Shown: piece after piece, positions 27,456-63,424 of the stretch
Layout of the letters: the number at the start of each line of letters is the position of its first letter
Numbering within the stretch: position 1 is the stretch's first letter
Virus record (IMG/VR): IMGVR_UViG_3300030103_002259
Location: 1-64,000 of that record
Reading direction: 5' to 3' (one strand)
Length of the DNA: 64,000 bases
Origin: a virus
Notes under the pieces: model-generated
The model's input: the letters and a program-made list of their open reading frames with translations, nothing else
Told to the model about the DNA's origin: nothing
Databases searched by the model: none
Position numbers and translations under genes: made by a program

Positions 27456-30400
27456 TTATAATATAAATGGATATACATTACTTGCATAAACAAACCCACC
27501 ATCATCATATACATATCCGCCTTTCTGATTTCCTTGTATTGGAAGATTACCAGCATTAACACCACCATATCCTGGAGGTGTCCCAGAATTACTAACAGAT
27601 GTAGCACTAGCTTGCAACTTCTCTTTCATCTCTATACACTGTTTTATTTCTGCTTCACTAGTTGCACCTTCATTCTGACATTCTGTTTTTAATTCACCAT
27701 AGCTCTTACGAACAGTTGAACGTTTACCAGTCATATCTCTACCACCTTTAAATGCTAAACTACCTCCATCAGCTGGATTAATATCATACTGCTCATTCAA
27801 TGCATTAAGATTCTGTTGCTTCTGTCTATTTGTAATAGCATTTGTATACAGATTTCTTAAGTTAGTTCTAGCAGCTAACTTAGCATTATCAAACTGTTGA
27901 TTAGCTACAGTGGTTTGATCATACAAGTTCTGACTTATCTGTTGATTAGTAAGTTGTTCTTGATTTCTGATACCAACCTTTTGTTGCTCATTAGCATTAG
28001 CAGCAGCTATGTTATTTACGTTATACTGATTTAATGTATCTGCAGCTTGTTTAGCAGCTTGACCTTGTATACTAGCAGCTCTTGCAGATTGAGCCTGTGC
28101 TCCAGCAAACTGACTAATTGCTTGCGTTTGTATATTAGCCTGTTCAGCTTGTGCTGCAAGCTCTCTAGTTGGATCAGCATATATAGCATCAGGTTCTTCA
28201 AGATCTACTCTTGGCGCCCAAGGCATATATTTTTTAATACCCATTAAATCACCAAAGGCTCCAGTAGTTTTAATTGTATCTTGTAGCCACCATGGAGCTG
28301 GTTCATCTTCTACAAGTATATTTTCATTCTCTTCACATGGTAAACAATCACCTGTTGCAGGGTCCACACCTACATCTATTATACTACCATCTTTTTTCTC
28401 ACATGGACATTTCTTTTTATCCTCTTTAGGATCACATGGACATTTACCATTCTCATCTTTTTCCATATAGAAATCACCATTAGGATCATCACATTGACAA
28501 CCATAATCTACACTAGTTGATTTTATACCTGTAAGTTCTCCAGCAGTAGTGTTACCATATACACTTGCATATCTATTACTACCACGCCCATTTGGATCTA
28601 ATTCTTCAGGCTGTACTATACCATCACCATCTAAATCTAAACTTTCAAAATCATCTATAGGAGATACATTAGTACCAAGATAACCTCTCATTCCAGTTTC
28701 ATCTGGATCACCCTCTTGTTGTTGACCCATAAAGTTTCTAATAGCAAATTGTGTATCTGCATCATAACTACTTGCATTATTCATCATATTAGCATATGCA
28801 TGAAAACCTGCTTGTTGAGCCGCTCTACTATTTTTACCATCACCTAGTTCACCGCTTCCAGAACCCATTTCTAAAGGTTCACCTATAGCAGTTGCTATTT
28901 GACCTAAAGAAATATTATTAGGATTTACTAAATCACCATTTCTATCACGTCTACCATATTCTTCAGCTATAAACTTTTTAGCTGAATTAAATTCTGTTTG
29001 AGTAGTTATAGGTGTACCTGTTTCAGGATTTACTATATCCATACCAGAATTTATACGAGCCTCTACATCAGGCCAACTTCTAAAACCTTTACCACTATTA
29101 CTAAATAATACAGGATCAATTTGTTTAGCTTTAAACATCAAGTTCCTTTTCTGCATCTTCATGAACTGTTCAATTCTTTCATCTGGGTTAAAAGCTCTTA
29201 ATGATGCTTCATTTGCTGTTTTAGCAGCAGCATTTCTATAACCACGAACATCTGATATTGAATTTTCGTATTCTTTATTAAATTGATCTCTAATCTTAGG
29301 GTCTTTAAAACCTTCTTTTAAAAGATAATATTGAATAGCAGCCGCTTTACCAGAAGGAGTTGTGCCAAAATCAGTACCCATAGTTTCTTCATCATAATCA
29401 GGAGTAACCCCTGTTTGATATTTACCTATACTTTTGGTACCATCAGCATTAACTCTAATAATTTTTTTTCCGTCTTGATTTGCTTGCCAAGCTTTTCTTT
29501 CATAATCAGGATCATTAACATTAATTTCTACACCATTCTGTGCTTTAGGTATAGATCTACCTACAGAAGCTTTAGGTGTATCATAAAATGGCATATCATA
29601 ACCACCCATCATCATACCATACATAGCCATAGGCATACCACCATATTGTTTCTCTGATATTTTTGGCGCATCTATACCATATTGTTCTAATCCTTGATAA
29701 AATAAATCTAAATCATTAGACCACTCAGTATTATGAGGACCTTCTGTTAAACCTTCTTCCATTAACCTCACAATACCTTGTAAGTGATCGGGATTATTAT
29801 AATCTTTTACCAGACAATCTAAGCAAAACTTAAATGTGCCATCAGCATTCATCATATCAGGATCCTGATTCCACATGTCAGGATTATTTATAAAGTAATC
29901 ATACTCTCCTCTAGCATAATCATAAAAACTTTGTGGCTCATCTTGAACTTCAGCTTGTTGTACATCAATGCCATTTTGAGCTCTTAAAATTCTTCCACCA
30001 AAAGACATTGATGGTTGTGCAACAGGAGCTTGATTCATTTCTTCTGCTTCAGCAACATCTTCACTCATCTCACCATCTTCTCCACCACCTTCTTTTTCTT
30101 CAACCTTTTTTGTTAATTGTTGATTTACTGCTTTTAACTGAGGGTTAACAATATCAGCCTCCTCAATATTATAGATTTTTGCAGCGGGCTGTGCAACAGC
30201 AGGTAAACCTTGCGGCATACCTTTCATAGACTCTTGTACTAAAGCTAATTCAGCTAGTTTAAGATTATAATTCTTAATCATTAACTCAGCTGTTTTTCTT
30301 GATAACTGATCTGAATCAGGATCTTCTAAAATTTTTCTATACTTATTAATATCATATTGTTTAGCAATCTTAGCAGGAGTTAAAGATTTTTTTTCATTCT

Positions 30401-30764
30401 TACCAAAACGTTTTAAAAGTTTTGGGTCTTTTACTTTCATTGATCTAGTATCACTATAGATAAAAGTATCATCTGGTAAGCTTAAAGGAACACCACCACT
30501 ACTATGGCGTGGACCTTTTATTATTTTATGTTCTGGAATACCATCACCATTCAAATCACCAAGTACAGTTTCACCACCTTCAGCCTCAACATTAGCCTCA
30601 TCTCTAGGTACACTAGTTATAAACTTACTTAAACTTAATGCAGGCTGTTGCATAGACTGAGTACTTCGCCCACCCATTGCAGCATTATCATTATACAAGC
30701 TATAATCTACTTGTTGTCCGACTTTAGCTTTAGGTAATCTTTTTATTCTTACTCTTCTTTTCAT
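27456..30764 (-). CDS. Virion cargo protein (cargo protein 1-like)
   Basis: 1102 aa. NVEAEGGE...GPRHSSGGV motif, a Q/A/N-rich coiled-coil C-terminus, several QxG(G) motifs, a Cys cluster and an EF-hand-like DLDGDG. Confidence 0.6.
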   Translation of the reverse strand: MKRRVRIKRLPKAKVGQQVDYSLYNDNAAMGGRSTQSMQQPALSLSKFITSVPRDEANVEAEGGETVLGDLNGDGIPEHKIIKGPRHSSGGVPLSLPDDTFIYSDTRSMKVKDPKLLKRFGKNEKKSLTPAKIAKQYDINKYRKILEDPDSDQLSRKTAELMIKNYNLKLAELALVQESMKGMPQGLPAVAQPAAKIYNIEEADIVNPQLKAVNQQLTKKVEEKEGGGEDGEMSEDVAEAEEMNQAPVAQPSMSFGGRILRAQNGIDVQQAEVQDEPQSFYDYARGEYDYFINNPDMWNQDPDMMNADGTFKFCLDCLVKDYNNPDHLQGIVRLMEEGLTEGPHNTEWSNDLDLFYQGLEQYGIDAPKISEKQYGGMPMAMYGMMMGGYDMPFYDTPKASVGRSIPKAQNGVEINVNDPDYERKAWQANQDGKKIIRVNADGTKSIGKYQTGVTPDYDEETMGTDFGTTPSGKAAAIQYYLLKEGFKDPKIRDQFNKEYENSISDVRGYRNAAAKTANEASLRAFNPDERIEQFMKMQKRNLMFKAKQIDPVLFSNSGKGFRSWPDVEARINSGMDIVNPETGTPITTQTEFNSAKKFIAEEYGRRDRNGDLVNPNNISLGQIATAIGEPLEMGSGSGELGDGKNSRAAQQAGFHAYANMMNNASSYDADTQFAIRNFMGQQQEGDPDETGMRGYLGTNVSPIDDFESLDLDGDGIVQPEELDPNGRGSNRYASVYGNTTAGELTGIKSTSVDYGCQCDDPNGDFYMEKDENGKCPCDPKEDKKKCPCEKKDGSIIDVGVDPATGDCLPCEENENILVEDEPAPWWLQDTIKTTGAFGDLMGIKKYMPWAPRVDLEEPDAIYADPTRELAAQAEQANIQTQAISQFAGAQAQSARAASIQGQAAKQAADTLNQYNVNNIAAANANEQQKVGIRNQEQLTNQQISQNLYDQTTVANQQFDNAKLAARTNLRNLYTNAITNRQKQQNLNALNEQYDINPADGGSLAFKGGRDMTGKRSTVRKSYGELKTECQNEGATSEAEIKQCIEMKEKLQASATSVSNSGTPPGYGGVNAGNLPIQGNQKGGYVYDDGGFVYASNVYPFIL

Positions 30765-30765
30765 A

Positions 30766-33700
30766 CTATATAAAATCTAATTCTACCCCATTGGCAAGTA
30801 AATATTCTATTAATTCTTCTGATAACTCATATTCACCATTTTCTTCAAACTGGTCCATGTAACCACCCTCTTGCATAAACCTACCATACTTAGCTGTGTT
30901 CATACCAGTACTATCTTCTTGACCCATTTGATCAAAGTTCTGTAAACCAAGTTGCTTACCTCCAATATCAACCTTATCACCTTTATAAGTTTTAACTGTA
31001 TTAGCATATAAGTTTTCTGGTCTAGTCATCTCATCATTATAATCAGCATAATCATTCTTTCTATTAGACCTAGACTTAAGTCCAGCAATACCTCGTATAC
31101 CAGCTATAGACACATTAGCTAATGCTTCACCATCTGTTACTTTAGTTCTTCTTTTTAATTTGTTTTCAAACATAACCTGTTTACCCTTCTTTTTATTTTT
31201 ATCATTATACTGATAATTATAAAAATCATTTTGGATAGGATCTACAGCTTGATTAGGATCTACAGTAATATTATTAGGTTGTGGATCAGGCATATCTGGT
31301 GTATTATTATTCATAAATGCTCCCATACTACCCATCATGCCTTGATTAGGATCTAGGTTAGTAATTTCTGCATCAAGATTAACTTCCATATTAGGTTGAG
31401 GTGCATTGACACCCATGTTACTAGTAAAACCTCCACTTTGCATAGGATTTCTTTTAGCTCTTCTATCAGCTCTGTCTGACTGTCTCTCACCCCTTCTAAT
31501 TTTTCTTCGCACACTTCCTTTTAAGTCACCATACTTATCTTTAAAACTTCTTTCTGGAATATCAAAATTAATTAACTTTTGAGTAGCTTGATTTCTAGAA
31601 TCTATTTGATTTTCTAGCTCACTAGAATCATCAGATCCAGTAGTATAATAATCAATATACTTTTTAGGCATACCCCTTCTATTAGTTTTAAGAACCTCTC
31701 TTCTCAATGGAGTAAGTTCATTCATAGGACCTGTATAATCAGTTTTAGTTTTTATATAAGGCATTCTACCAAACATCCTATTAGCTGGAAATAACATATC
31801 ACGTAAAGCACCTCTTCTACCACTAAATGTACCATAAGGAACCGTTTGTCTATTATAGTTTATAGTAGCTTTTCTAATAGGGTAACCTTCCCAAGGATCA
31901 ACAGCATTTTTTTCAGCTGCTCCAGCATCCATAAATGCCTTTGCTACCTTGTATGCAGCACCACCTCTTTGTGCCATTGGCACATCTTCCATTTCACCAC
32001 CCTCTTGTTTTATTTTACCTAAAGAAAAATGTGGGGCAACCCAGTCATAAGTAGTTTTAGGCTCTTTTAAACCAAGTCCAAAATTAGACTCAAGCATGCC
32101 TGTTCTAGTAATAGAAGGTAAATCCTTTGGTACTTGATCTGCTGACATACTACCTGGTTTATATTCTAATACTGGATAACCAAAGTCTTGACCAGTTAAA
32201 TTCTGCATATTCTCTAAGTTAGTCATATAATAATCTCTTCTTAATTTAGAAGTATCACCAATAATCTTAGCTTCTGCCTTAGCTATTTCTGCATCATTTA
32301 AACCTTGAAACTTTAAATCATAAATAGCATCATACATCTTTTTACCCCAATACCCATCAGTTAAAAAGTCTTCACCTTGAAGTCTATTATAACCAGTAAA
32401 GATGGGACTTTCAAATATACCATAACGTTCAGGATTCTGCAACATTCTAGCAAAATGACCATCTTGCATTAATTTAGAATCAAGGGTAAGATTATCTGAC
32501 CCTGTACCAAGTGATCCTATAGGTAGTTTACTTATATCAGCCATTTGTAGTTTTGAAGCTTCTGCTAAAGCAGCAGGACTTCTATAGTTATGAGCATATA
32601 ATGAAGGCACAACATTTTTACTTGGTATACCTAAAGATTCAAAACCCATCATACCTTGAGAAGACATACCAGTAGGGTTTTCCATCAGCATTTGAAATCT
32701 CTTTACAGCTTGTTCAGGAGTAAGCTCATTGAAAAAAGATAGATTTGAGTCTGCTCCAAAATCTGTACCATATTGAGCATCTGCCATAGCCCTAACATTT
32801 TCTAAGCTGAGAGGAGCATTAGCATAATCTAAATCAGCAGCAGCACTTTGTAACGGCCCACGACCTTGTGATATAGCTCTTAATATACCTTCCTTAGATT
32901 GCATACCAGGATAAATTACTTGAAGATCTTCATCTAATACATGACTAGTTTTTGCAGAATTTAATTTTTTCTTTAATACATTATCATTTGCAGTAGTCAT
33001 AAAATTTTTATCTCTAATCAAACCTCTAATTTGCTGCAATCTTTTTAATTCATCTTTAGGAATTTTATTAAAACTTTTAACAGGTTGTAAATCTTTATAA
33101 ACTTTTAAAGCATTTTTTATAATCTTACCTCTCTGAGCTCTAGGCATTTCAGAATTTTCTTCTTGAACTAAACCATCTGCCATTTCCATAACTTTAGGGT
33201 CACCTAATTTATTAGCATTATTATAAATCCCTTCACCCAATGCTTTTGTAGAAAGATTTTTTAAACTTTTTGTAAAATCAGACTTTCTTTTACTAATCTC
33301 ATTTGTTAAAGTATCCTGTCTATTACCAGTACCTATAGTTTCTGAATCACCACCTTCTTGTTTTTTAAGCAATGACTTGACAAATTTTCCTTTTGTCATA
33401 CCACCATATGACATCATACTTAAATCATCCCAACTAATATTATCTGGACTAATATATTCAGATAATGTTGGAAATCTTATATCCATTATAGGACTTTGCA
33501 TACCATCCATATACTGATCAAAGGACATTTCTGGCTGCGGCTCTTCAGCTTGGCCACCTTCTTGTAATCTATTGTTAAAATAAGTTCTATTACTATATCT
33601 TCTTTTACCTCGACCTTTATTGCCAAATGCATTAGCAAAGAAGTTATTTACCGCACTATTACGAGCACGTTGTCTTTTCATGAGAGGAGCTCTTTGTGAT

Positions 33701-34425
33701 TCTGTAGGTGTAGATTCTGTGGGTGTAGGTATAGATGCAGGTGGTTGTTCAGATATAGGAGGCGACAATGGTGGTGGTGAAATACTTGGACCACTAGTAC
33801 CAGGGCCTATATTTGCACTTGCACCACTTTGATAAGCACCTCTATTACTTAACATACTTTGTCTTAACTTCTGCTGTAACATCTCATTCTCATCACTAGA
33901 TGGTTCAAAAGATAAATTAGGATCAAATTTAATTGAACCAACTCCACCACCTTGTTGCATAGATAACTCAGAAGTTTCATCTTGTGCCATCATTTCTTCT
34001 TGATCACCCTCAGAGTAACCATCTTCTTGATAAGGTTGTTCTGACTGAGTTAAGTCTGTCATTTCTTCTGGTATGCTAGCAGACTGTGGAGCAGTTTGAT
34101 CTTGACTTTGATCTGATACTTTCTTAGCCATCTTTTCAAAGTACTGTGGATCAAATAAACCAGCCTCAATCATTTTACTTATTACCTCTGACATCAAAGC
34201 ACCTGCCATTTTTTTCTCCATACCTGATGTTAAAAGATTTGCATAAACTTCTTCAGGTTTTATATTTGCACGAAGCTGTGCAAATACATTTCTAGCATAA
34301 GTATCTCTTATAGCACGTTCTGTAATACCGCCTCCCATTTGAAATTTAGACAAAAACTTTTTTGTCTTATTTATATAAGCACCTTTATTATCTGGTGACT
34401 TATAAATCTTTACTCTTTTTTTCAT
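30766..34425 (-). CDS. Modular cargo-like polyprotein
   Basis: 1219 aa. Many QxGG/AQRG motifs, low-complexity linkers, one globular module (about 32010-33135) and an acidic C-terminal tag. Confidence 0.6.
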   Translation of the reverse strand: MKKRVKIYKSPDNKGAYINKTKKFLSKFQMGGGITERAIRDTYARNVFAQLRANIKPEEVYANLLTSGMEKKMAGALMSEVISKMIEAGLFDPQYFEKMAKKVSDQSQDQTAPQSASIPEEMTDLTQSEQPYQEDGYSEGDQEEMMAQDETSELSMQQGGGVGSIKFDPNLSFEPSSDENEMLQQKLRQSMLSNRGAYQSGASANIGPGTSGPSISPPPLSPPISEQPPASIPTPTESTPTESQRAPLMKRQRARNSAVNNFFANAFGNKGRGKRRYSNRTYFNNRLQEGGQAEEPQPEMSFDQYMDGMQSPIMDIRFPTLSEYISPDNISWDDLSMMSYGGMTKGKFVKSLLKKQEGGDSETIGTGNRQDTLTNEISKRKSDFTKSLKNLSTKALGEGIYNNANKLGDPKVMEMADGLVQEENSEMPRAQRGKIIKNALKVYKDLQPVKSFNKIPKDELKRLQQIRGLIRDKNFMTTANDNVLKKKLNSAKTSHVLDEDLQVIYPGMQSKEGILRAISQGRGPLQSAAADLDYANAPLSLENVRAMADAQYGTDFGADSNLSFFNELTPEQAVKRFQMLMENPTGMSSQGMMGFESLGIPSKNVVPSLYAHNYRSPAALAEASKLQMADISKLPIGSLGTGSDNLTLDSKLMQDGHFARMLQNPERYGIFESPIFTGYNRLQGEDFLTDGYWGKKMYDAIYDLKFQGLNDAEIAKAEAKIIGDTSKLRRDYYMTNLENMQNLTGQDFGYPVLEYKPGSMSADQVPKDLPSITRTGMLESNFGLGLKEPKTTYDWVAPHFSLGKIKQEGGEMEDVPMAQRGGAAYKVAKAFMDAGAAEKNAVDPWEGYPIRKATINYNRQTVPYGTFSGRRGALRDMLFPANRMFGRMPYIKTKTDYTGPMNELTPLRREVLKTNRRGMPKKYIDYYTTGSDDSSELENQIDSRNQATQKLINFDIPERSFKDKYGDLKGSVRRKIRRGERQSDRADRRAKRNPMQSGGFTSNMGVNAPQPNMEVNLDAEITNLDPNQGMMGSMGAFMNNNTPDMPDPQPNNITVDPNQAVDPIQNDFYNYQYNDKNKKKGKQVMFENKLKRRTKVTDGEALANVSIAGIRGIAGLKSRSNRKNDYADYNDEMTRPENLYANTVKTYKGDKVDIGGKQLGLQNFDQMGQEDSTGMNTAKYGRFMQEGGYMDQFEENGEYELSEELIEYLLANGVELDFI

Positions 34426-34482: not shown

Positions 34483-37400
34483 TTACATATCCTCAACAAT
34501 ATACCCTTGTTTAACTAAGTTATCTATTTCTTTTTGAGTTAATTCTGTTTCTACAGAACCTCCCTTTTGAAACTCAGGTATACCACCATATTCAAGAATA
34601 CCTTTCTTTCTTAAAAATTGTTTAAACCTACCATCCATTTTTTTTCTTTTGCCAAACAAACCTTGACCTTTTCTAATAGAATTATTATATCTTCTTTTAC
34701 CTCCTAAACCTTGACCACTACCAGACAAAGCTCCTTTAGAAAATTGAAGACCTCTTCTTATAGGTTTATACGGGATTCTAGATGGGTTTGGATTTATATC
34801 TGATGGCATTACACTTTCACCTTCTGTATCCCAGATTTCAGTTACTGTAAAGTCTTCAGGATCTATATCTTCTCTTGGCTCTGGTGTATAATCAAATGTT
34901 CCTGGTTTTATTTTATCAAGAGGTACTATTTCAATTTCTGGTTCAGGCTCTGGTTCTGGTTCTGGTTCTGGTTCAGGAATTACCTCTTCAGGTATTTCTT
35001 CTACTATAAGTTCTTCTTCTGGTTCTTCTATAAATTCATCAAAATCATCAAAGAAAAGATTGTGACAACCCCCTTCAGCCTTACACATATACTTTTTATT
35101 TATATCCCATTTACCAGGAACAACTGCAGGACTAAAGTTTCCTTGATAATAAGGGTTAGGTCTATACTTTACACACTCTACACCGTTCCAAACTTCACCT
35201 GGACCACAATCTTTAACATTACCACCTTTACTTAATAATGGCCTCTTCTTACCTTCAGGGAATCTAAAATCTGTTTTCATTACACCAAAGTGAGGTAGTA
35301 TAATTGAATTCTCTCGCATCATAAAGTCATATGGATTAGTAATGTATGATGAAACGGGATCCTGAGAATTCAATGTTTGAACAATAGGTAACCTATCTCT
35401 TTCAGGAATGCCTTGTTTATCATACATGTCATTCAATTGTTTTTGAAGATATTGAGACCTAATATCTAATTGATCACTGCTTCTTATACCTAAAGAGTTA
35501 TCCATTAATAAACTAGCTAAGTCACCCATTGAGTTAGCTGGGTAATAACCTAAAAACATAGGGTAAGGAAGTACATTTGGTAATTTACCTGGTATTGTAG
35601 GATCTGTACCTTTAGTAGCTCTAAATATTCTACCCAGCTGCATAGCATAAGAATCGTCAGATGTATCTAAAGAACCTGTGACAATAGTATTTGGCTTTGC
35701 ACCATAAAAACCTCGATTAAGTCTTTGTTGAAAAGCGTTAAACAATTCTCTATCATTACCGTATCTATTTCTAAATAATGAACCGACTGCTTGTTTTATT
35801 TGAAGATTCCTATGGAAATCTGTCATATCATTAAATCTACTTAATGGTTGTTCACCAGGTAACAGAGTTGAAGAATCTAATGCAGAACTAGGCGTCTGGT
35901 TTAAGCTACCACCATCAAGAGTACCTAATGTTTCCATCTGTCTTATAGCTTCATCACCACCAATAGTCATCGCTGGTACATATTCAGGTTTTGTAAGATT
36001 TCTACTAGTAGTATGTTGTATTGCTTGATCCAAAATGTCTATAAGCTCTTCTTTAGATTTTTCTTGTATTAGCCTTCTTGCTTTATTTATTCTCTCTTGA
36101 CTAGGTTCTAAATAACCCTCACTATTAGGAACCATGAGTCCTTTGTTAAAATGTGAGTTTGTTAATAAACCTGCTACCTCATTTTTAGTAATATTTGAGT
36201 TCATCAAAACCTTCCGTAATTTTTTACGGTTAGCATTCATTTGTATATCTTGAAATCTTTTTATTTCTGGATTTGTAAAAGTTCCTGATACATTAGTTGG
36301 TACACCAGTATAACCATAACCTATCATCAGGTCAGTAAGAGCCTTATACTTATCAAAAGTTCTCTGATCCATCATAGGTGAAACAATAGTATTTGGTAAT
36401 AGTCTAGGAAGTTCTTCTTTAAATTTAGACAATGTTTTTATAATCCTTCCTGCTTGACCTTTAGGTAATGTTTTTATTTTTCCATTATGAGTTCTTGCAT
36501 ATCTATTATTTTCATCTTCCATACCAGGTATTAAAGTTCCTGAATATGATTTACCTTTAAAGTTCCAAGATACATTACCACCCTTTTGAAAATCTTCAGG
36601 CTGCTCTAATTCAGGTTGCATTCTATAATTAGTAGTAAGCTCTTCTCCTGGTTCTAGATCTCTATTAGCAAAAACATATCTTTCATTTCCAATTTTTTTA
36701 CTAAACATTGTTGGGGAATCTTCATTATGATTATGCATCCTACCCAATTTAGATGCGGGTTGGTCATCTCTATGAGCTAAACCAATCATATCACCTTTTT
36801 TAAAACTTCTAGTAGTAAACATACCATCACCAGCACCTTTTATTTTAGATTTAGATTGAGCTATCCCGCCATCTTTTACCATTGGTATTTCAAGCACTCT
36901 ATTACCTGGAAATTCATAGTTCATATCTGGCATCATCATCTTGCTATTACCTAAATTATCTATACCCATAACTGGAAAATCAACATCTTCCATGGTTATA
37001 TTATTTGAGTCAATAATATTAAAAGGATTATTTATATCAGGACTACCTGACTTATAACCTTCTGTAGAATAAATACCACCTTTTTTAAAATTTTTTATTG
37101 TCTGTTTAGCAGTATTCTTAAAATCTTTTATATTTTTTTCAGCGTCATTATAAAGCTCTGCACCTTTAGTAAAAATCCCTTCCATAACTGGCATTGCTAT
37201 ATCATCAAACGATAATGGTAACATAGCTGATTCTAATGCAACACCACCAAAAGCTGGATTATTAAAATTACCACTCATATAATTTTTAGCACCTTCATTT
37301 AAACCCGTAGCTGAGTTGACTGTAAACGGTTTAAATTTAAAATTTCTAAGAGCTTTTGGATTCAGTAATTTATCAGCAGATCTAACACTCTTTTTCAAAC

Positions 37401-38838
37401 CATCTGCTAAAAACTTTTTACCACCAAGCGCTCTACCAAAAGTTAAATTCAGTGCAGGTGCTAAAAAATCTGATGCGCCAATATCTGCATCAGGTGTATT
37501 ATAAGAATAGGCTGCAATATTACCCAAACCTTTAAGACCATCTGCAAACAATTGCGCAGCTCTAATTTGACCCAAGTAGGGTGTAATATAAGAAGCCCCA
37601 TCCAAACCTTGCATCATCATATTACCTTCCCAAATACCAGCGGCAGGATCCTCCTCTTGCATACGGTCAGTATTACCGTATTTAGATAAATGACCAAGTG
37701 CATCAACAGGGTGTAAAAACTTAGTAAGCGTAGAAGCTCTTCTATAAGGATTTTTAATATTCCAAGATGCATTATTTCTAGCTGACTCTTCATCACTTAT
37801 ACCTCTTATATGATGACCTCTATCAAACCACTGACCATCTGGACCCAGAGTCATGCCAGCATCCAGCATTTTTTGAGCCTCAATTAATTCTAAATCTGCA
37901 TCATAACCACCTTCTACATCTTTAAGAATTGCAATCTTTTGAGCTTTAGAGAGACTACTATCATTAGCAATTTTTCTTTGAAAATCAATAAGTTTCATAC
38001 CCCTATCTTTAAGATCACCACTTGAACTTTGTAAGTTAGCAGCTTCTTCTTCAAGATCTAATGTTCTTTCACGATAAGGGGCAAAAGTATCTGATGTAGC
38101 AACATTTCTCTCATAATCAGATAAATTACTATCAAATTCAGACTGAGCTTCCTTAGCTCTTTTATCTTCTTCTTTAGCAGCATCTGTATAAATATCTGTA
38201 ATATCATTAGTCAGACCAGAACCAGTATAATATTTAAGGATTTCATCTTGGGTTTCATCTGTGTAATCACCAAAATATTTTTCTAATGATTTAGCATCCT
38301 TACCCATTCCTTGTTTGAGTAACTTATCAATTATTTCTTCTTTAGTTTTACCTTCCTGTAATTCTTTAAGAATTGTTGTTTTATTTCCTAATTCATAATT
38401 AGCTTTATGTAGATCAAAAATATTTTGAAAAGATTTAGAAAGAAGATTCTTTTTACTAATACCCATATTCTCAAACTCTTTAGCTGTAGCACCTCTATTA
38501 TAAATAGCTTCTGCAATAGAATTTGGATCATATGCCTGGAAACCTGAAACCTGCTCACTACCGTCATCACCTTTAGTATAATTTGGAGAAAGAAAAACAC
38601 CAAGCACAGGAAAGCCATCTTCCCCTGGACGGTTTATATATTCAGAAAAACCATCCATAGTTGGTTGTACATCAGAGTCTAAAGAACTTGAGTATTCATT
38701 ATATAGGCGTTCTATAAATTTATTATCTAAACCTATAGCATCAGTATAAGTTTTACCTTCACCATCTTGATAAGGTTTGACCTCAAACCTACCTCCATTC
38801 TGCATTCTAGGTAATGCTGTTATTCTATACTTTTTCAT
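34483..38838 (-). CDS. Modular cargo-like polyprotein containing a minimal SET domain
   Basis: 1451 aa. SET motifs GAGDGMF, RMHNH and GEELTTNY at about 36600-36865, flanked by KDGG and FQKGG. Also a PE repeat and the C-terminal tag. Confidence 0.7.
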   Translation of the reverse strand: MKKYRITALPRMQNGGRFEVKPYQDGEGKTYTDAIGLDNKFIERLYNEYSSSLDSDVQPTMDGFSEYINRPGEDGFPVLGVFLSPNYTKGDDGSEQVSGFQAYDPNSIAEAIYNRGATAKEFENMGISKKNLLSKSFQNIFDLHKANYELGNKTTILKELQEGKTKEEIIDKLLKQGMGKDAKSLEKYFGDYTDETQDEILKYYTGSGLTNDITDIYTDAAKEEDKRAKEAQSEFDSNLSDYERNVATSDTFAPYRERTLDLEEEAANLQSSSGDLKDRGMKLIDFQRKIANDSSLSKAQKIAILKDVEGGYDADLELIEAQKMLDAGMTLGPDGQWFDRGHHIRGISDEESARNNASWNIKNPYRRASTLTKFLHPVDALGHLSKYGNTDRMQEEDPAAGIWEGNMMMQGLDGASYITPYLGQIRAAQLFADGLKGLGNIAAYSYNTPDADIGASDFLAPALNLTFGRALGGKKFLADGLKKSVRSADKLLNPKALRNFKFKPFTVNSATGLNEGAKNYMSGNFNNPAFGGVALESAMLPLSFDDIAMPVMEGIFTKGAELYNDAEKNIKDFKNTAKQTIKNFKKGGIYSTEGYKSGSPDINNPFNIIDSNNITMEDVDFPVMGIDNLGNSKMMMPDMNYEFPGNRVLEIPMVKDGGIAQSKSKIKGAGDGMFTTRSFKKGDMIGLAHRDDQPASKLGRMHNHNEDSPTMFSKKIGNERYVFANRDLEPGEELTTNYRMQPELEQPEDFQKGGNVSWNFKGKSYSGTLIPGMEDENNRYARTHNGKIKTLPKGQAGRIIKTLSKFKEELPRLLPNTIVSPMMDQRTFDKYKALTDLMIGYGYTGVPTNVSGTFTNPEIKRFQDIQMNANRKKLRKVLMNSNITKNEVAGLLTNSHFNKGLMVPNSEGYLEPSQERINKARRLIQEKSKEELIDILDQAIQHTTSRNLTKPEYVPAMTIGGDEAIRQMETLGTLDGGSLNQTPSSALDSSTLLPGEQPLSRFNDMTDFHRNLQIKQAVGSLFRNRYGNDRELFNAFQQRLNRGFYGAKPNTIVTGSLDTSDDSYAMQLGRIFRATKGTDPTIPGKLPNVLPYPMFLGYYPANSMGDLASLLMDNSLGIRSSDQLDIRSQYLQKQLNDMYDKQGIPERDRLPIVQTLNSQDPVSSYITNPYDFMMRENSIILPHFGVMKTDFRFPEGKKRPLLSKGGNVKDCGPGEVWNGVECVKYRPNPYYQGNFSPAVVPGKWDINKKYMCKAEGGCHNLFFDDFDEFIEEPEEELIVEEIPEEVIPEPEPEPEPEPEPEIEIVPLDKIKPGTFDYTPEPREDIDPEDFTVTEIWDTEGESVMPSDINPNPSRIPYKPIRRGLQFSKGALSGSGQGLGGKRRYNNSIRKGQGLFGKRKKMDGRFKQFLRKKGILEYGGIPEFQKGGSVETELTQKEIDNLVKQGYIVEDM
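34936..34977. repeat. Hexanucleotide tandem repeat (TGGTTC)n encoding a Pro-Glu linker
   Basis: tctggttcaggctctggttctggttctggttctggttcagg, translating to PEPEPEPEPEPEPE on the minus strand. Confidence 0.9.
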
Positions 38839-56771: not shown

Positions 56772-56782
56772 ATTGATAAAAT

Positions 56783-56820: not shown

Positions 56821-56840
56821 ATATGAGTAATTAATTATTG

Positions 56841-58325: not shown

Positions 58326-58355
58326 TTTTTTTCTTTTTTAAATTTTATAAATAAA

Positions 58356-58378
58356 TAATATACTATAATATACTAAAA
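58356..58378 (-). promoter_or_regulatory. Putative promoter element TTTTAGTATATTA with a tandem TAGTATATTA duplication
   Basis: Plus strand taatatacta-taatatacta-aaa. The 13-mer is identical to 34442-34454. Confidence 0.55.
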
Positions 58379-58403
58379 GTTTTTTAATTAATCAAACCTA
58401 AGA

Positions 58404-59102
58404 TTAATTATTTCTTTCAGCCTCTTGCTGACCTCTAGAATACTGATTTCCAGATTCTATATCTCCAGCTATTATACTTACAGCTTCGTCAATAATTAAT
58501 TCTACAATGTCATCTTTAAACTCAGAAGTAACATCTGTAGTAGATTCAACTTCAGTATATGGATTTATACAACCTTTAACTTGAATTAATCTAGGCTGTC
58601 TATAGTAAGTAAGTTCTGATTTAGATATTTCAAAGTCTGCGTTAGTATAAATGTTTATACCATCATCAGTTAAAGTAGCAAATGTTTCCGCCCAAGAAAA
58701 ACTAGGTTGTTTAGATTTATCTCTCAAAAGCTGATTAAGATTTTCTTCTTCTGCTAAATAGACAGTCATTCTTCTATTTTCACAACAACCTTTACATGCG
58801 TTAACATCAAGCCTTTTCCACTGTAAATAATCTTTAGGTACAGGACCTCTATAATAAATATCTTCTTCTTGAAGTAAAATTGGATCCTGAACTAATATAA
58901 CCTGAAGATCATCTTTTCTTCTGGTAGATTGCTCATCACCTTCTCTTAATGTATTAATACCATGCAGCTGTCTTCTGCACCACTCTACTTGAGCTTTGTT
59001 AAAAGCCTCAACTATTTGCCAGCACAAAACATTATCATAATCTTGACTATCAAGTTTATTGAGCCTTTCTTTAATTTTTATTGTAAGTGTGCTATTTAAC
59101 AT
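58404..59102 (-). CDS. Ring / head-tail connector protein (crAss gene-74-like)
   Basis: 232 aa. KLDSQ...FNKAQ, LTYYRQP and EL.IDEAV motifs. Confidence 0.65.
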   Translation of the reverse strand: MLNSTLTIKIKERLNKLDSQDYDNVLCWQIVEAFNKAQVEWCRRQLHGINTLREGDEQSTRRKDDLQVILVQDPILLQEEDIYYRGPVPKDYLQWKRLDVNACKGCCENRRMTVYLAEEENLNQLLRDKSKQPSFSWAETFATLTDDGINIYTNADFEISKSELTYYRQPRLIQVKGCINPYTEVESTTDVTSEFKDDIVELIIDEAVSIIAGDIESGNQYSRGQQEAERNN

Positions 59103-59272
59103 TACTTCTTTTTCTTTCTTTTAGCGGCAATCTTTTTAAAAGTCTTAGCAAGTGTTTTAGCTTTACCTGTACAAGTCTTCTTTGTAATAGGTGTGCATTT
59201 ACCTTTAGTACCTCTCTTCTTAATAGAAGCACTAACTTTTTGCATCCACTTTTTATCTTTCTTTTTCGCCAT
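59102..59272 (-). CDS. 56-aa Lys-rich protein (not in the ORF track)
   Basis: Hand translation MAKKKDKKWMQKVSASIKKRGTKGKCTPITKKTCTGKAKTLAKTFKKIAAKRKKKK*. TAATG overlap with the next gene. Confidence 0.75.
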   Translation of the reverse strand: MAKKKDKKWMQKVSASIKKRGTKGKCTPITKKTCTGKAKTLAKTFKKIAAKRKKKK

Positions 59273-59274
59273 AT

Positions 59275-59769
59275 TTAAATTCTTGATCTATAGCGTTTTG
59301 TTTTACCGTCTCTATATATTTTTTCTTTTCTAACCCCTCTTGTTTTACCTCTATTATTAGTTCTAGATCTTGATGACATTTCTGAACTTGAAATTAAATT
59401 ACCAGCTTTATCATACGTCCTAAAGTCATCAGTAATTTTTTCTTTTGATCTTGATCTTGTATTATCTCTTCTATTAGTTCTAGACTTTATATTTCTATAA
59501 TAACTATCATCATTTGTAGTATAACCACCTTTATTTTCACCTGTAAAATTGGTTATTTTAGATTTACCTATACCCGTTCTTGTAAGTTCAGATTTTCTTC
59601 TAGTACCTCTTCTATTAGTATTACCACTTCTATCTTCAACGGTATTCATCTCTCTATTACTTTCAACTTGACCACTCCAGGTACCTCCTTGCTGAAGCAT
59701 AGGTTTTGGCTTTTGTCTAGATTCTCTAAAGAATCTTAAAACTTCTGTAGGGTTAGCTTTATTTTTCAT
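59275..59769 (-). CDS. Arg/Ser/Thr-rich basic protein (start revised to MKNKANP)
   Basis: The track start at 59808 overlaps a micro-ORF. The ATG at 59769 has an A-rich leader. Contains LQQGG and repeated SRTN.R. Confidence 0.65.
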   Translation of the reverse strand: MKNKANPTEVLRFFRESRQKPKPMLQQGGTWSGQVESNREMNTVEDRSGNTNRRGTRRKSELTRTGIGKSKITNFTGENKGGYTTNDDSYYRNIKSRTNRRDNTRSRSKEKITDDFRTYDKAGNLISSSEMSSRSRTNNRGKTRGVRKEKIYRDGKTKRYRSRI

Positions 59770-59776
59770 AGTTATT

Positions 59777-59842
59777 TTAATAATCCCAGTAAATAAAGAT
59801 TTGATCATTCTCTTCTTCTGGATCTTTAAAAGTTTTGTTCAT
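59777..59842 (-). CDS. 21-aa acidic micro-peptide
   Basis: MNKTFKDPEEENDQIFIYWDY*. It fills the gap between the promoter-like motif (59847-59859) and the next ATG. Confidence 0.45.
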   Translation of the reverse strand: MNKTFKDPEEENDQIFIYWDY

Positions 59843-59846
59843 ATAT

Positions 59847-59859
59847 CAATATACAAAAA
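59847..59859 (-). promoter_or_regulatory. Putative promoter element TTTTTGTATATTG
   Basis: Variant of the recurring intergenic motif. Confidence 0.4.
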
Positions 59860-60147
59860 TTAGCAATTCCATTTACGTAGAGATTTGTTAATTCTTGAAT
59901 TAGGATCATTCTTTTTCTTAGATCCTGTCATCTTCTTTTTCATACCTGACATTCTAGCACAAAAACTTTTTCTTCTCTTAGCAGCTTTACTATTTTTTTT
60001 AAGTTTAGAAGGTTTTGTTGTAACAGCAGTTTTAAGTTTACTTCCAGGGTTAGCCTTTCTGTAAGAAGCAACACCTTTTTTATTTAAGCCACCTGACTTA
60101 CTTTTACCTTCCTTCCTAGTCCAAGCTGGAGTTTTTTTAGTTGCCAT
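59860..60147 (-). CDS. Small Lys-rich phage protein (resembles the DUF6321-type family)
   Basis: 95 aa. AWTRKEGK..GGLN..G..SY...NPGSKL...RRKSFCARM...SLRKWNC. Family recalled from memory, not searched. Confidence 0.65.
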   Translation of the reverse strand: MATKKTPAWTRKEGKSKSGGLNKKGVASYRKANPGSKLKTAVTTKPSKLKKNSKAAKRRKSFCARMSGMKKKMTGSKKKNDPNSRINKSLRKWNC

Positions 60148-60163
60148 AATTTAAAACATTCTT

Positions 60164-60790
60164 TTAAAATCGTAATTTTCTTTTAACTTTATTTTTAATT
60201 CTTTTTAGTTTAGCTTTAACTTTACCGTTACCGCCAATATTCAAGCCGTTACCACTACGTTTTGGACCAGACATACATTTACCCTTAACTACCTTACCAC
60301 CTCTACAACCACCACCTCTAACTGCAGCACCTCCTAGTTGCATATACTGACCACCTAATTTTTGTTCTTTAATGTCATTAAAATACCCTAGTACTGCTGC
60401 GGGGTTTGTCATATTACCACCCATTTGCATTTTGCTTCTAATTTTTTTAGAATTCTTTTTAAAAGATTCAGTATCAGCCATTTTAGGAGATGGACCTAAA
60501 CCTGACTTTCCATAAACCATTTTTATAGCCTTAGTTTTTATAGGATCCTTTAATGTTTTACGTTTTTTACCCATTGGTCTAGCTATAGACATACCCATCT
60601 GAGCTTTAGGTAATTTAGGTTTAGTGTGACCATAACCCTTCTTTTTCATACGGGTATGATCAGCCATAACTTTTGCTTTATAACCCTTTCCTGTTTTAGG
60701 ATCATACATCATATGAGGTTTAAACTTCTTCTTAGCAGCACTCTTTTTAGCACCACCTTTACTATATAAACTTTTTGGCATTGTATTCAT
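60164..60790 (-). CDS. Lys/Met/Gly-rich modular basic protein
   Basis: 208 aa. FKPHMMYDPKTG module, LPKAQMG, MQMGG and MQLGG. Confidence 0.7.
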   Translation of the reverse strand: MNTMPKSLYSKGGAKKSAAKKKFKPHMMYDPKTGKGYKAKVMADHTRMKKKGYGHTKPKLPKAQMGMSIARPMGKKRKTLKDPIKTKAIKMVYGKSGLGPSPKMADTESFKKNSKKIRSKMQMGGNMTNPAAVLGYFNDIKEQKLGGQYMQLGGAAVRGGGCRGGKVVKGKCMSGPKRSGNGLNIGGNGKVKAKLKRIKNKVKRKLRF

Positions 60791-61059
60791 TATTTTCTTT
60801 TTTTAGTTGTTTTTCTTTTTCTAACTGAACTAGTTCTATTACCCATACCAACTCTTTTCTTTTCAGCAACAACAGAAGCTTTTCTAGAACCTAAACCGCC
60901 CCATGTCACTGGAGTTTTTTTAGAAACTTTTTTGCTAGGTCTACATTTTTTGACGGCTTTATTCTTAGAGGATCCGCACTTATTGCCTTTTTCATCAGTC
61001 CACTTTTCTTTGAACCAACGTTTTAATGCTGCACCTTTAGCTGTCTTTCTAACCGCCAT
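60790..61059 (-). CDS. Small Lys-rich protein
   Basis: 89 aa. LKRWFKEKW...CG...CRPSKKVS.KTP. Translationally coupled to its neighbours. Confidence 0.7.
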   Translation of the reverse strand: MAVRKTAKGAALKRWFKEKWTDEKGNKCGSSKNKAVKKCRPSKKVSKKTPVTWGGLGSRKASVVAEKKRVGMGNRTSSVRKRKTTKKRK

Positions 61060-61268
61060 TATCTTTTCTTTTTGCTCTTACCAGCTTTTCTTTTTCTACA
61101 CTTAGCAATCATACCACTAGCATAAGCAGAAGGAAATACTTTATGAGCTCTTTTAGCTGCATAGTAACAAGAGTCTTTTTTACTCTTAGTTTTTTTCTTT
61201 TTAGATCCTCCTTTTCTAAAGAATTCTAAAATTTCACCGTCCGTATTTATTCTACTATAATTAGGCAT
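61059..61268 (-). CDS. Small Lys-rich protein
   Basis: 69 aa. FRKGG, then KDSCY...FPSAYASG.IAKCRK. Confidence 0.7.
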   Translation of the reverse strand: MPNYSRINTDGEILEFFRKGGSKKKKTKSKKDSCYYAAKRAHKVFPSAYASGMIAKCRKRKAGKSKKKR

Positions 61269-61270
61269 AA

Positions 61271-61459
61271 CTATAAGCTTCTTCTTAATGAGGCACCTCT
61301 GATAACTTTACCTTTGCCACATGAGCCACCATACTTTAATTGTTGTCCTTGAATAGTTCTTGGATTATTACTATATCTAGCCATAGTCTTACCTGGGTAA
61401 GGATTTTGACCTCCATTTTTCATTTTGTGGGCACCGCCACATTTCATACATTTTGGCAT
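61271..61459 (-). CDS. Small basic protein with an LRRS tail
   Basis: 62 aa. MKNGG, LKYGG and VIRGASLRRSL. TAG stop. Confidence 0.65.
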   Translation of the reverse strand: MPKCMKCGGAHKMKNGGQNPYPGKTMARYSNNPRTIQGQQLKYGGSCGKGKVIRGASLRRSL

Positions 61460-61469
61460 ATCTTATATT

Positions 61470-61772
61470 TTATTTATTTTTTATACTTCTTCTTAGTGAT
61501 CCACCTTTAATTAATTTTGGTTTAGATTTATTACTTGATTTAGGAGATCGTGATACTTCATATAATACTGTACCATAAGGATCTGTCTCTAAAATCTTAT
61601 ATTGTACGTCTGTGATACCTCTTTTTTTAAGAGCACGTCTTCTTGCATTATAAGCACTTCTACTAGGCGCCACTCTCTTACCCAAAACAGGTGAATAATC
61701 TTTACTTTTCTTAGCCGCTTTCTGAACTGCTTTAGCTATACCACCTTTCTGATATTTTGTAAGGTGTTTCAT
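61470..61772 (-). CDS. Small basic protein with an LRRS tail
   Basis: 100 aa. YQKGGIAKAVQKAAKK...LIKGGSLRRS. Confidence 0.7.
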   Translation of the reverse strand: MKHLTKYQKGGIAKAVQKAAKKSKDYSPVLGKRVAPSRSAYNARRRALKKRGITDVQYKILETDPYGTVLYEVSRSPKSSNKSKPKLIKGGSLRRSIKNK

Positions 61773-61774
61773 AA

Positions 61775-62155
61775 TTAATGCTTTTTACTTCGTCTTAATG
61801 ACCCACCTTTCATCATCTTCATACCACCATACTGAGCATAGCCCATTTTATTACGAACATCTGTTGGTAATGATCTTAGACCATTAAACTTTTTACCAGC
61901 TGGAACACTTTTCAAAGAACCGCCTGATTTAAATTTAGGTTTTTGAAGTTCAGGATACTTCATGCGATTCATATTGTCACCTTTTTTTACGTCTACCCCA
62001 AACATTCCAGGCTTATATACATTCAGTGATTTACGTTTAAGTTTCAAAGAAGCAGGTGTTTTTCCAGCTCTTTTTACCTTTGCAAGTTTTCCAGTTGTTT
62101 TTTTAGCAGCCTTTGCAGCAAGTTTTGCAATACCACCTTTTTGATACTTTTTCAT
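61775..62155 (-). CDS. Small basic protein with an LRRS tail
   Basis: 126 aa. YQKGGIAKLAAKAAKK...GLRSLPTDVRNKMGY...MKGGSLRRS. Confidence 0.7.
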   Translation of the reverse strand: MKKYQKGGIAKLAAKAAKKTTGKLAKVKRAGKTPASLKLKRKSLNVYKPGMFGVDVKKGDNMNRMKYPELQKPKFKSGGSLKSVPAGKKFNGLRSLPTDVRNKMGYAQYGGMKMMKGGSLRRSKKH

Positions 62156-62157
62156 AG

Positions 62158-62526
62158 TTAATGTTTTCTAGATCTTCTTAAATTTTTACCTCTGATAACC
62201 CCACCTGATCTATATAACTTCATAGTAGGATTATTTTCTAACGCAGCTTTAAACATATCAAGAGCATCTTGATTAGTAATATTAGGATTCTTTAAAAAAC
62301 TCTTTACTTTCTTAGCATCACCAGAACTAATTACACCACGTTTTTGCATAGCCTGCCTCAAACCTTCTTTAGCATATTGGTCTGTATCATACTTTTTTCC
62401 TTTCCTACCTATAGTTGTAGTTCTCTCAGGTAATTTAGGTTTAGGTACTTTAACTTTCTTTTTTGCAGCTTTAGCAGCACTACTTATAATCTTACCCCTT
62501 TGTGCTTTTGGTAAATACTTTTTCAC
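62158..62526 (-). CDS. Small basic protein with an LRRS tail (start revised to GTG at 62526)
   Basis: A GTG 1 nt after the upstream stop gives MKKYLPKAQRG, matching the MKKY starts of paralogous neighbours. Ends IRGKNLRRSRKH. Confidence 0.65.
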   Translation of the reverse strand: MKKYLPKAQRGKIISSAAKAAKKKVKVPKPKLPERTTTIGRKGKKYDTDQYAKEGLRQAMQKRGVISSGDAKKVKSFLKNPNITNQDALDMFKAALENNPTMKLYRSGGVIRGKNLRRSRKH

Positions 62527-62527
62527 C

Positions 62528-63424
62528 TTATAAAGATTTTGGAGAGTTATTACCTCTTTTTCTACTTCTGCTAATTTTTCTAACAATTTTTTTAGCACTC
62601 ATAGGTCTTCCACCACCTTGGTTTTTCTTAACAACACCTTTTCTAGTTACTCTCTGAGTTAATCCAGATGGAGAAGTTATAGTTCTACCTCGTTGAGCCT
62701 TTGTAAGTTGAGTTCCAGATCTTTTAGAAGGAAGATTTTTTCCACCTGGTATAGGTCTTGTAACTTTAGCTTTACCTTTCCCAGTAGCTTTTTTTCCTGC
62801 TGCTTTTGTTGCTCTTTTAAGATCTTTTTTAGTTCTAGGCATTCCAGGAGGCATCATACTTGTACTTGATTTTTCCTTTTTAAGTGACTTTCTTAATACT
62901 TTTTTCATTCCTGGTGTAAGCTTTCCAATAGAACCACCTTTTTGCATTTTAGTTGTCTTAGCATATTTTTTTACAGCTTTTTTAGCACTAACAGGTCTTC
63001 CCGCACCTTGATTCTTTTTAGCTACGCCTTTTCTATTTACTTTAGTTTTTAGTCCAGACTTAGAAGTTACAGTTCCGCCTTTTTGCATTCCAAGGGTAGC
63101 AAGTTTTGTAGATGATTTTCTAAGAGGAGATACCTTACCACTAGCTTTAGCTCTACTTTTACCTGAAGCTATTTGTAAAGCTTCATTAAGTTTTGATCTC
63201 ATATTAGCTCCAGTTGATCTTAAACCACCTTTAGTTAAGCTTTTTTTAGCAGCAGCAGTGCTTTCCATCTTTCTCCTAATTGGAGCCTTAGAAGTAGATT
63301 TTCTACCTGGAGTACCTTTACCTTTTCCAGCAGCTTTTACAAGCCTTGTCATTTTTGCTAATCCTTTTTGGCCTTTTGGTAATCTTTTTTTTGCACCACC
63401 ATAACCATACTTTTTCATTGCCAT
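62528..63424 (-). CDS. Histone-H1-like in composition (K/A/R/G-rich) protein with an internal duplication
   Basis: 298 aa with very few acidic residues. Two copies of T.TS.SGL...V.RKGV.KKNQG.GRP.SAKK.V.K. Confidence 0.75.
   Translation of the reverse strand: MAMKKYGYGGAKKRLPKGQKGLAKMTRLVKAAGKGKGTPGRKSTSKAPIRRKMESTAAAKKSLTKGGLRSTGANMRSKLNEALQIASGKSRAKASGKVSPLRKSSTKLATLGMQKGGTVTSKSGLKTKVNRKGVAKKNQGAGRPVSAKKAVKKYAKTTKMQKGGSIGKLTPGMKKVLRKSLKKEKSSTSMMPPGMPRTKKDLKRATKAAGKKATGKGKAKVTRPIPGGKNLPSKRSGTQLTKAQRGRTITSPSGLTQRVTRKGVVKKNQGGGRPMSAKKIVRKISRSRKRGNNSPKSL

Follow-up and report, generated by a model that had tools for sequence, protein, structure and literature searches.

The stretch of DNA analysed here (the window) covers the first 64 kb of the IMG/VR record IMGVR_UViG_3300030103_002259, which has 83,391 bases and is estimated to be 70% complete; its source is an uncultured crAss-like phage in which capsid, ring and muzzle genes stand in one block with the genes of giant polymerase-associated proteins downstream. 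The four large proteins encoded between the muzzle and these giants (1458, 1451, 1219 and 1102 amino acids (aa); here called cargo-slot proteins) and an array of ten small basic proteins carry a common short peptide tag, with the consensus K-[M/F/Y]-[K/Q/A]-x-G-G-[S/A/T]-[T/V/I] and an interchangeable variant [L/I]-P-K-A-Q-x-G. The data below establish that this tag is defined at the level of the peptide, is found throughout the lineage and marks the edges of exchangeable modules in one class of proteins. The crAss-like phages rank with the most abundant viruses known.

The tag was counted with two strict patterns, [FMLY][QK]xGG (GG form) and [LMI]PKAQxG (PKAQ form), and with a loose one ([FMLYIVW]xxGG or [LMIV][PLT][KR][AG][QK]xG), and chance was controlled by 200 within-protein shuffles which keep the composition. 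Of the 29 strict copies in the window, 16 belong to the cargo-slot proteins and 13 to the small basic proteins of the array. The GG form accounts for 24 of these (none, five, four and four in the 1102-, 1219-, 1451- and 1458-aa proteins, respectively, and 11 in the small proteins) and the PKAQ form for five, with one copy in the 1102-aa protein, two in the 1458-aa protein and single copies in the genes at 60164 and 62158. The 13 GG-form copies in the cargo-slot proteins compare with 1.08 expected (shuffle maximum 6), the 11 in the small proteins with 0.47 expected (shuffle maximum 3), and the three and two PKAQ copies with about 0.01 expected. The other 43 open reading frames (ORFs) of the whole record (20,637 aa) contain one GG-form copy against 1.55 expected and no PKAQ form against 0.01, and no strict tag occurs in the ring, muzzle, 1259-, 2445-, 3249- or 1980-aa proteins. 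With the loose pattern 33 copies in cargo-slot and 25 in small proteins were found, that is 58 in 14 proteins where the shuffles predict 12.1 + 3.6 = 15.7, and none of the 200 shuffles reached these counts; in the remaining ORFs the loose pattern stays at background (27 versus 25.2 expected). Seven of the ten small proteins carry a strict copy and nine a loose one. A previous sequence-only reading of the window had counted about 50 copies by eye, which matches our loose count and not the strict one. Its proposal of one peptide grammar linking the four large proteins with the basic array stands (16 + 13 strict copies versus about 1.1 + 0.5 expected), as does the near-absence from ring, muzzle and RNA polymerase proteins, and the proteome-wide enrichment check which it had proposed separates the 14 proteins, with their strong excess, from a background level elsewhere. 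Both the enrichment of the tag and its restriction to cargo-slot and array proteins are confirmed as real.

The same restriction was found in relatives. The capsid protein (L002:1153-2766) is 88-95% identical in at least 595 IMG/VR contigs, of which 80 loci were kept, and 42 of the 80 contain both genes flanking the array. The array region varies from 276 to 4147 bases across these 42 loci, which together carry 208 strict tags in 34,000 aa of array as against five in 204,715 aa outside of it. The five outside ORFs (L062:215-862, L066:570-881, L073:49-306, L077:310-534 and L081:601-897) are themselves small basic proteins with tag-bearing leaders and sit near the upstream end of the fetched loci. 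Among 264 unique array ORFs of relatives the first GG lies within 30 residues of the start in 121, and a strict tag is present in the first 30 residues of 53, compared with 5 of 576 other ORFs; the tag typically stands 4-13 residues from the N-terminus, often with a second one before the basic C-terminus, and in 93 of the 264 a GG lies among the last 25 residues, where it typically forms Phi-K-K-GG with 4-10 basic residues after it. The tail-to-polymerase region was taken from the 15 longest related contigs, 14 of which were used for the cargo-slot count: 47 cargo-slot proteins (54,827 aa) contain 58 strict and 12 PKA-type tags, while 58 control proteins (ring, muzzle, 1259-family and polymerase; 86,504 aa) contain three and none, with the reservation that two cargo slots run off their contigs and that their last ORFs may be misassigned. 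In a complete relative of 122,794 bases (G004) only 6 of 133 ORFs carry a strict tag, and all six are in or adjoin the cargo slot (four, one of them a 1146-aa homologue of the 1259-aa protein) or the array (two). Leptolyngbya phage Lbo-JY46, which at 32% portal identity is the nearest cultured phage (the portal is at most 32% identical to those of cultured phages), has four strict tags in 36 proteins, three of them directly after the gene in the muzzle position. For the 1102-aa family 1377 homologues were found (E <= 1e-5); among the 120 listed, 115 have the N-terminal tag and 83 an internal composite of the form GG...Phi-x-K-A-x-x-G, and when 89 of the 120 were aligned, the tags stood as conserved islands amid gappy stretches.

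The large cargo-slot proteins are mosaics whose alignments with relatives begin and end at tags. Across 15 relatives and 105 proteins, 10 of the 51 distinct internal ends of high-scoring segment pairs (HSPs) were within five residues of a strict tag as against 1.99 expected, a result matched by 3 of 5000 random placements; it should be noted that HSP ends are not independent and that a conserved tag itself lengthens an alignment, so that this overlap shows that modules bear a tag at their edge and nothing further. Examples are three alignments of the 1458-aa protein which stop at FQGGG, and an HSP of the 1219-aa protein to a relative (residues 292-994) which is flanked by LQEGG (287-291) and MQSGG (995-999). 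The clearest travelling unit is a 50-residue module with an invariant A-T-N (the ATN module), which in 10 of 10 relatives has a K-K-G-G-type tag before it and Phi-x-x-GG after it, and which opens four of the proteins (residue 1) and starts within residues 31-582 of the others. The preceding tag reads Phi-K-K-GG if internal and M-x-x-Phi-K-x-GG if it opens the protein (four of the ten relatives shown). A profile of this module matched 537 clusters (50% identity) of 1.84 billion representatives, in proteins of 69-2378 aa and with match starts from residue 1 to 631. The best 150 of the 537 clusters were taken, 28 without the regular-expression core were dropped, and the remaining 122, counted with the ATN module itself excluded, contain 126 strict tags versus 15.7 expected (maximum 25 over 100 shuffles) and 24 PKA-type tags versus 0.83 expected, at a median spacing of 154 aa, which is domain-sized. 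As to exchangeable modules with tags at their borders, the cassette picture drawn by the sequence-only reading is borne out by these breakpoints and by the flanks of the ATN module.

The residues around the GG are also defined. Position -4 favours Lys, position -3 Met, Phe or Tyr (enriched 4-7-fold) and position -2 Lys, Gln or Ala; after the GG, position +1 favours Ser, Ala, Thr or Tyr and position +2 Thr, Val or Ile, and the GG pairs of control proteins show no such preferences from -4 to +2. The codons of the tag vary synonymously, which indicates selection on the peptide and not on the DNA. A DNA-level recombination signal was ruled out by these synonymous motif codons together with Gly codon use at background.

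In the window, in which all long genes are on the minus strand, the first gene after the muzzle encodes the 1458-aa protein (38835..43211, minus strand). Its sites are FQGGG at residues 57-61, LPKAQLG at 530-536, a double seam of LKDGG and LPKAQRG at 808-819 (40755..40790, minus strand), LQRGG at 1232-1236 and FQKGG at 1428-1432, the last followed by an acidic C-terminal tail, and the motif HEAAH lies at 1060-1064. The double seam is preceded by a hydrophobic LP..PFA tail and a charged spacer and followed by a Lys/Ala amphipathic stretch. The 1451-aa protein (34483..38838, minus strand) opens with the leader MKKYRITALPRMQNGG and has further sites at 584-588 (FKKGG), 654-658 (VKDGG), 750-754 (FQKGG), 791-797 (LPKGQAG) and 1423-1427 (FQKGG, then an acidic tail). 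Between its VKDGG (36865-36879) and the first FQKGG (36577-36591) lies a SET-domain cassette (36592..36864, minus strand; residues 659-749), with the Pfam SET match at residues 694-738 above the cut-off (E = 9.5e-6, 26.4 bits, cut-off 22.4); HSPs near this cassette end at 751/756. A 48-residue module which runs from this FQKGG to LPKGQAG (36448..36591, minus strand) recurs at a different position in the cargo protein of a relative (G015, residues 852-899) with 81% identity. The 1219-aa protein (30766..34425, minus strand) has five strict sites by pattern count. Of the four, the 1102-aa protein (27456..30764, minus strand) is conserved best; MKRRVRIKRLPKAKVG is its N-terminal tag, and ILRAQNG (259-265) and IPKAQNG (405-411) lie further inside. 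A basic strand with a tag stands at the N-terminus of three of the four large proteins. An acidic tail of about 25 residues after a GG, with a G-Y-[I/T]-[V/I]-E-like ending, closes three of the four (34483-34570, 38835-38915 and 30766-30860); a GG is present in the last 45 residues of 134 of 150 representative relatives, and the acidic form was seen in most of the 22 tails shown. As to domain borders, the sequence-only reading had placed a SET domain between KDGG and FQKGG, which is what we find, and a zincin between LPKAQRG and LQRGG, where HEAAH is indeed enclosed by the two sites (813-819 and 1232-1236) and no Pfam peptidase family was matched; its "ART-like" label for residues 537-807 of the 1458-aa protein found no Pfam support at E <= 0.5. 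Pfam searches with 10 tag-delimited segments gave no match above a cut-off. Of the effector domains proposed for the large proteins, SET is above the Pfam cut-off and the putative zincin is read from the single motif HEAAH.

The array comprises ten small Lys/Arg-rich genes (59275..63424, minus strand) for proteins of 62-298 aa with a K+R fraction of 0.21-0.36. Most of their tags belong to N-terminal leaders of 8-13 residues or stand 8-17 residues ahead of the C-terminus; array proteins consist of 20% Lys and 10% Gly. Seven of the ten open with a tag-bearing leader and four end in GG plus a basic C-terminus. One gene start was corrected: the gene at 62158..62526 (minus strand) starts at a GTG, codon 25 of the ORF listed as 62158-62598 and one base past the upstream stop, and encodes 122 aa opening with MKKYLPKAQRGK, its start MKKYLPKAQRGKIISSAAKAAKK being parallel to MKKYQKGGIAKLAAKAAKK of the gene at 61775-62155. 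Here the PKAQ form swaps for the GG form, as this protein reads MKKY-LPKAQRG-KIISSAAKAAKK and its neighbour MKKY-QKGG-IAKLAAKAAKK. The 298-aa basic protein (62528-63424) has two repeats of about 35 residues with a Gly-Arg-Pro core flanked by lysines, which resemble AT-hooks. The proteins at 59860-60147 and 60790-61059 match Pfam DUF6321 (3e-19) and DUF5872 (6.6e-12), so that part of the array belongs to families which are already catalogued, with no function assigned there.

The virion block was identified by Pfam matches to Crass_capsid (3.7e-29), CrAss_Ring_1 (7.2e-11), CrAss_Ring_2 (2e-22) and crAss_MUZ (2e-12), and portal and large terminase were assigned by PHROGs. In the direction of transcription the order is terminase, portal, a 431-aa scaffold-like protein which is acidic (D+E 0.20), has a basic C-terminus and matches no family, capsid protein, a 338-aa protein and the ten small basic genes, followed by tail genes, ring 2, ring 1, muzzle, the 1458-, 1451-, 1219- and 1102-aa proteins and the 1259-, 2445-, 3249- and 1980-aa proteins. 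The 3249-aa protein (6525-16274) contains both DFDID, given as the motif of the crAss virion RNA polymerase in the abstract of the phi14:2 preprint, and Y-HEAWH, and the 1980-aa protein (579-6521) has HEFAH (residue 207) and a LysM domain recognised by Pfam (1657-1695). No close relatives of the 1458-aa and muzzle (43211-48613) proteins were detected by an IMG/VR pattern scan or by tblastn of the phage collection, and within one virion module the evolutionary rate of the capsid therefore contrasts sharply with that of the muzzle and the first cargo protein. The corresponding slot of crAss001, from the muzzle to the polymerase proteins, is taken by gp45 and gp46, both reported as detected in virions by mass spectrometry (PMC10172136), and because the slots match, the four cargo-slot proteins are most likely packaged in the particle. 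For the small basic proteins packaging is a weaker inference, and delivery of the cargo into the host together with the DNA would follow from the slot held in common with gp45 and gp46 only.

The best reading, which we put forward tentatively, is that of a loading tag like the capsid targeting sequence (CTS) of phage T4 which is in addition trimmed; it is ranked first because the T4 CTS and the multi-site processing of giant phages are the nearest models. The tag would be a short address-and-processing signal on exchangeable modules of virion-internal proteins. It would bring its module into the assembling particle as the T4 sequence does, perhaps by binding the acidic 431-aa scaffold-like protein or DNA, and the chain might then be cut after Gly-Gly, so that leaders and tails are trimmed and modules separated either in the particle or after injection. 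The small residues after the GG are in favour of this, and tags which stand three residues from a start or a few from a stop cannot be domain hinges, which points to a signal that each module needs for itself. A number of observations weigh on the other side. Strict tags are absent from the capsid protein (537 aa), the portal (916 aa) and the scaffold-like protein (431 aa), which sets these apart from what classical prohead proteases cut, and the giant RNA-polymerase-associated proteins, which by analogy with crAss001 are likely packaged, also lack it, so that the tag does not serve for loading in general. Positions +1 and +2 are constrained as well, and in the 1102-aa family conservation around the N-terminal tag spans about 18 residues on both sides, which exceeds what cutting would require. 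The hydrophobic share of the 20 residues upstream of tags is the same as at random (0.272 versus 0.270) and that of the 20 downstream slightly higher (0.301 versus 0.274), and a location of the tags in hydrophobic-poor linkers is unsupported by this crude composition test.

The search for an enzyme which could cut the tag tells against trimming too. Six-frame searches of five genomes, two of them complete, gave no Peptidase_C5 or Peptidase_C48 and no S78 (PF04586; control positive in four), while the S77 search (PF03420), also without a match in the five, is uninformative as its control was silent everywhere; the phage maturation protease invoked by the sequence-only reading was thus not matched by the C5, C48 and S78 searches. 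A Pfam scan of 59 of the 133 ORFs of the complete relative G004 (those of 130-1000 aa, with four ORFs crossing locus borders omitted) gave, among the 25 of 27 families shown, a single peptidase, DUF2201_N/VWA, outside the structural block. This metallopeptidase-like ORF (23185-24489) is in the early region and is kept in four of four near-complete relatives. Other Pfam matches of the same genome (L096, L097 and L100) are ATE_C, the C-terminal domain of arginyl-tRNA-protein transferase, spore photoproduct lyase and the C-terminal domain of RNA polymerase alpha. Candidates for the cutter would be the giant DFDxD polymerase protein with its conserved HExxH motif, the cargo with its variable HExxH modules, or an enzyme of the host. 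Ten HExxH motifs were counted in 60,057 aa of cargo and three in 86,504 aa of controls; the motif is, however, present in the cargo slots of 8 of 15 genomes and missing from those of the other seven, which makes a cargo zincin unlikely as the universal cutter. All three control copies represent a single conserved motif, Y-HEAWH, which the orthologues of the 3249-aa protein have in common (three of the three reached), and the window protein has it too (HEAWH, residues 751-755, 14010..14024, minus strand), as the motif of a candidate co-packaged zincin-like peptidase in a region matching no Pfam family. Published precedents go both ways, since zincin-like domains have been predicted to process polyvalent proteins (PMC5512222) and a "polyprotein likely cleaved" has been stated for crAss-like phages (10.1101/2020.03.07.982082), while the N4 polymerase, as the zincin-processing literature notes, is packaged unprocessed.

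The tag may, with somewhat lower probability, be a docking or hinge peptide which stays in the chain as an uncut seam without any proteolysis, binding the scaffold-like protein, portal, tail lumen or DNA or allowing modules to unfold and refold one by one on their way through the tail. The protease-family searches without a match, the conservation on both sides of the GG, the flanks which are not linker-like in composition and the length, near-invariance and strand-turn-strand-like character of the N-terminal tag in the 1102-aa family all fit this explanation, and so does gp45 of crAss001. As described, gp45 is a single chain spanning tail and capsid, with a portal-bound domain modelled at 425-552 and a tail-barrel segment at 214-245, and the paper text, as far as available, has no mention of cleav-, proteoly- or protease and describes no tag or processing (PMC10172136). 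Its A-F-G-G (425-428) opens the modelled domain and its S-A-Y-G-G ends at 210, four residues ahead of the modelled segment; the position of A-F-G-G inside the modelled chain argues against cutting after that GG and hence also against trimming, although these joints were read from the paper text and not from coordinates, and have the aromatic residue directly before the GG, a register unlike Phi-[K/Q]-x-GG. An uncut seam would, on the other hand, have nothing to join where tags stand three residues past a start codon or 4-10 before a stop, or in small proteins which have several tags just 6-8 residues apart.

The remaining explanations are weaker. The tag could have no common reader; it would then be an end-cap or turn in the structure of an old type of module and would have been copied whenever modules were duplicated and shuffled. 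Modules do travel with their flanks, junctions form longer conserved cassettes (hydrophobic tail, charged spacer, tag, amphipathic helix) and an acidic tail is conserved after the C-terminal GG, but we consider this improbable because the same 5-7 residues flank unrelated modules (SET, HExxH and ATN modules as well as zinc-knuckle-like and DUF-type small proteins), both variants interchange in the same context and the synonymous codon variation means that the peptide is still under selection. That the tag is a site of DNA contact or of modification on histone-like proteins, with Lys-Gly-Gly stretches which bind DNA or are marked by SET or other cargo enzymes, is suggested by the Lys- and Gly-rich array, by the two G-R-P repeats in one of its proteins and by the SET domain encoded in the cargo; that the tag also borders acidic and enzymatic modules of the large proteins, and that the hydrophobic residue at -3 and PKAQxG are unlike known Lys-modification or AT-hook motifs, leaves it a minor chance. 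A compositional artefact of Gly- and Lys-rich sequence would explain why GG itself is commoner than expected in the small proteins (30 versus 16.4) and is refuted by counts which no shuffle reached, either in the window or in the representatives (0/100), and by the lack of the GG-flank preferences in controls.

One short tag on swappable cargo modules in hundreds of divergent clusters makes the choice, loading and release of cargo directly testable. If the tag is a loading or release signal, it would explain how effector cassettes are freely exchanged beside a nearly invariant capsid, and it would offer a handle for putting foreign proteins into such particles; if the seam is uncut, the tag still defines the unit of cargo evolution.

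A close comparison is offered by crAss001 (Bayfield et al., 2023; PMC10172136; PDB 7QOG, 7QOI, 7QOJ, 7QOL, 8CKB), whose cargo proteins C1 (gp45) and C2 (gp46) fill the same gene slot from the muzzle to the polymerase-associated giants. gp45 is likewise GG-rich (21 sites), but 15 proteins of gp31-gp47 contain no strict Phi-[K/Q]-x-GG and no PKAxxG, and crAss001, unlike the window, has no array of small basic proteins. Sequence homology of the 1102-aa family to gp45 was not detected (BLASTP E = 0.56, hhalign probability 0.1, no gp45 in a PDB-sequence profile search), Pfam crAss_CARG1 was absent from eight of eight family members at E <= 1, and the single link, an ESM-feature neighbour at 0.93, is a lead. 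The window cargo, with its SET and HExxH modules and fast-shuffling architecture, also resembles the polyvalent proteins (Iyer, Burroughs, Anand, de Souza and Aravind, 2017; PMC5512222), large mosaics of unrelated enzymatic domains delivered with DNA in which zincin-like domains are frequent. The available text of that paper names no junction peptide, and "linker" and "crAss" occur in it 0 times; the window differs by having a junction code, which it has in common with the small basic proteins. No literature description of this tag was found in main texts (supplements and extended-data figures being outside this search).

The double-glycine leaders, to which the sites had been likened, are a resemblance only, and the window tags are also found inside proteins and near C-termini. 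Such leaders have 15-30 residues ending in GG and are handled by a C39 peptidase-transporter. The likeness to adenovirus is an analogy only, the virus being unrelated. Its protease AVP cuts histone-like basic core proteins, along with further precursors, at sites which end in Gly-Gly (the assay substrate is Met-Arg-Gly-Gly) and a short basic C-terminal peptide is released, as the window array proteins end in GG followed by 8-13 basic residues (according to the sections of PMC4246237 available); adenain differs in that the window has its hydrophobic residue three before the GG, one further out, and Peptidase_C5 was not found. We regard it as rather unlikely that a tailed phage follows an adenovirus-like maturation, in which one Gly-Gly tag, carried alike by histone-like core proteins and multi-effector polyproteins, would direct loading and then cutting by a co-packaged unclassified peptidase. 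Were it so, a cutter such as the HExxH region of the giant polymerase protein would free effectors, among them the SET methyltransferase, together with short basic peptides in the DNA-filled particle or on injection.

The giant phages phiKZ and SPN3US, as described in PMC10052503 and PMC9026906, package and eject many proteins which share one short site, several per propeptide, and package a multi-subunit RNA polymerase; their sites are read by a gp21-like prohead protease which also cuts the capsid protein and portal, whose window counterparts are untagged. T4 differs from the window in that a known S77 protease cuts shell and scaffold too, and in that its tags are N-terminal and not repeated in polyproteins. 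The T4 cleavage sites end in Glu, a consensus unlike the window tag. The T4 CTS, as described in PMC9026906, is a short N-terminal leader on unrelated basic injected proteins and an enzyme (IPI-III and Alt), of which about 10 residues are enough for loading; it is cleaved by gp21, Alt is trimmed at both ends, and related phages swap the cargo and keep the leader. An N-terminal tag leader of this type opens seven of the ten small and three of the four cargo-slot proteins of the window.

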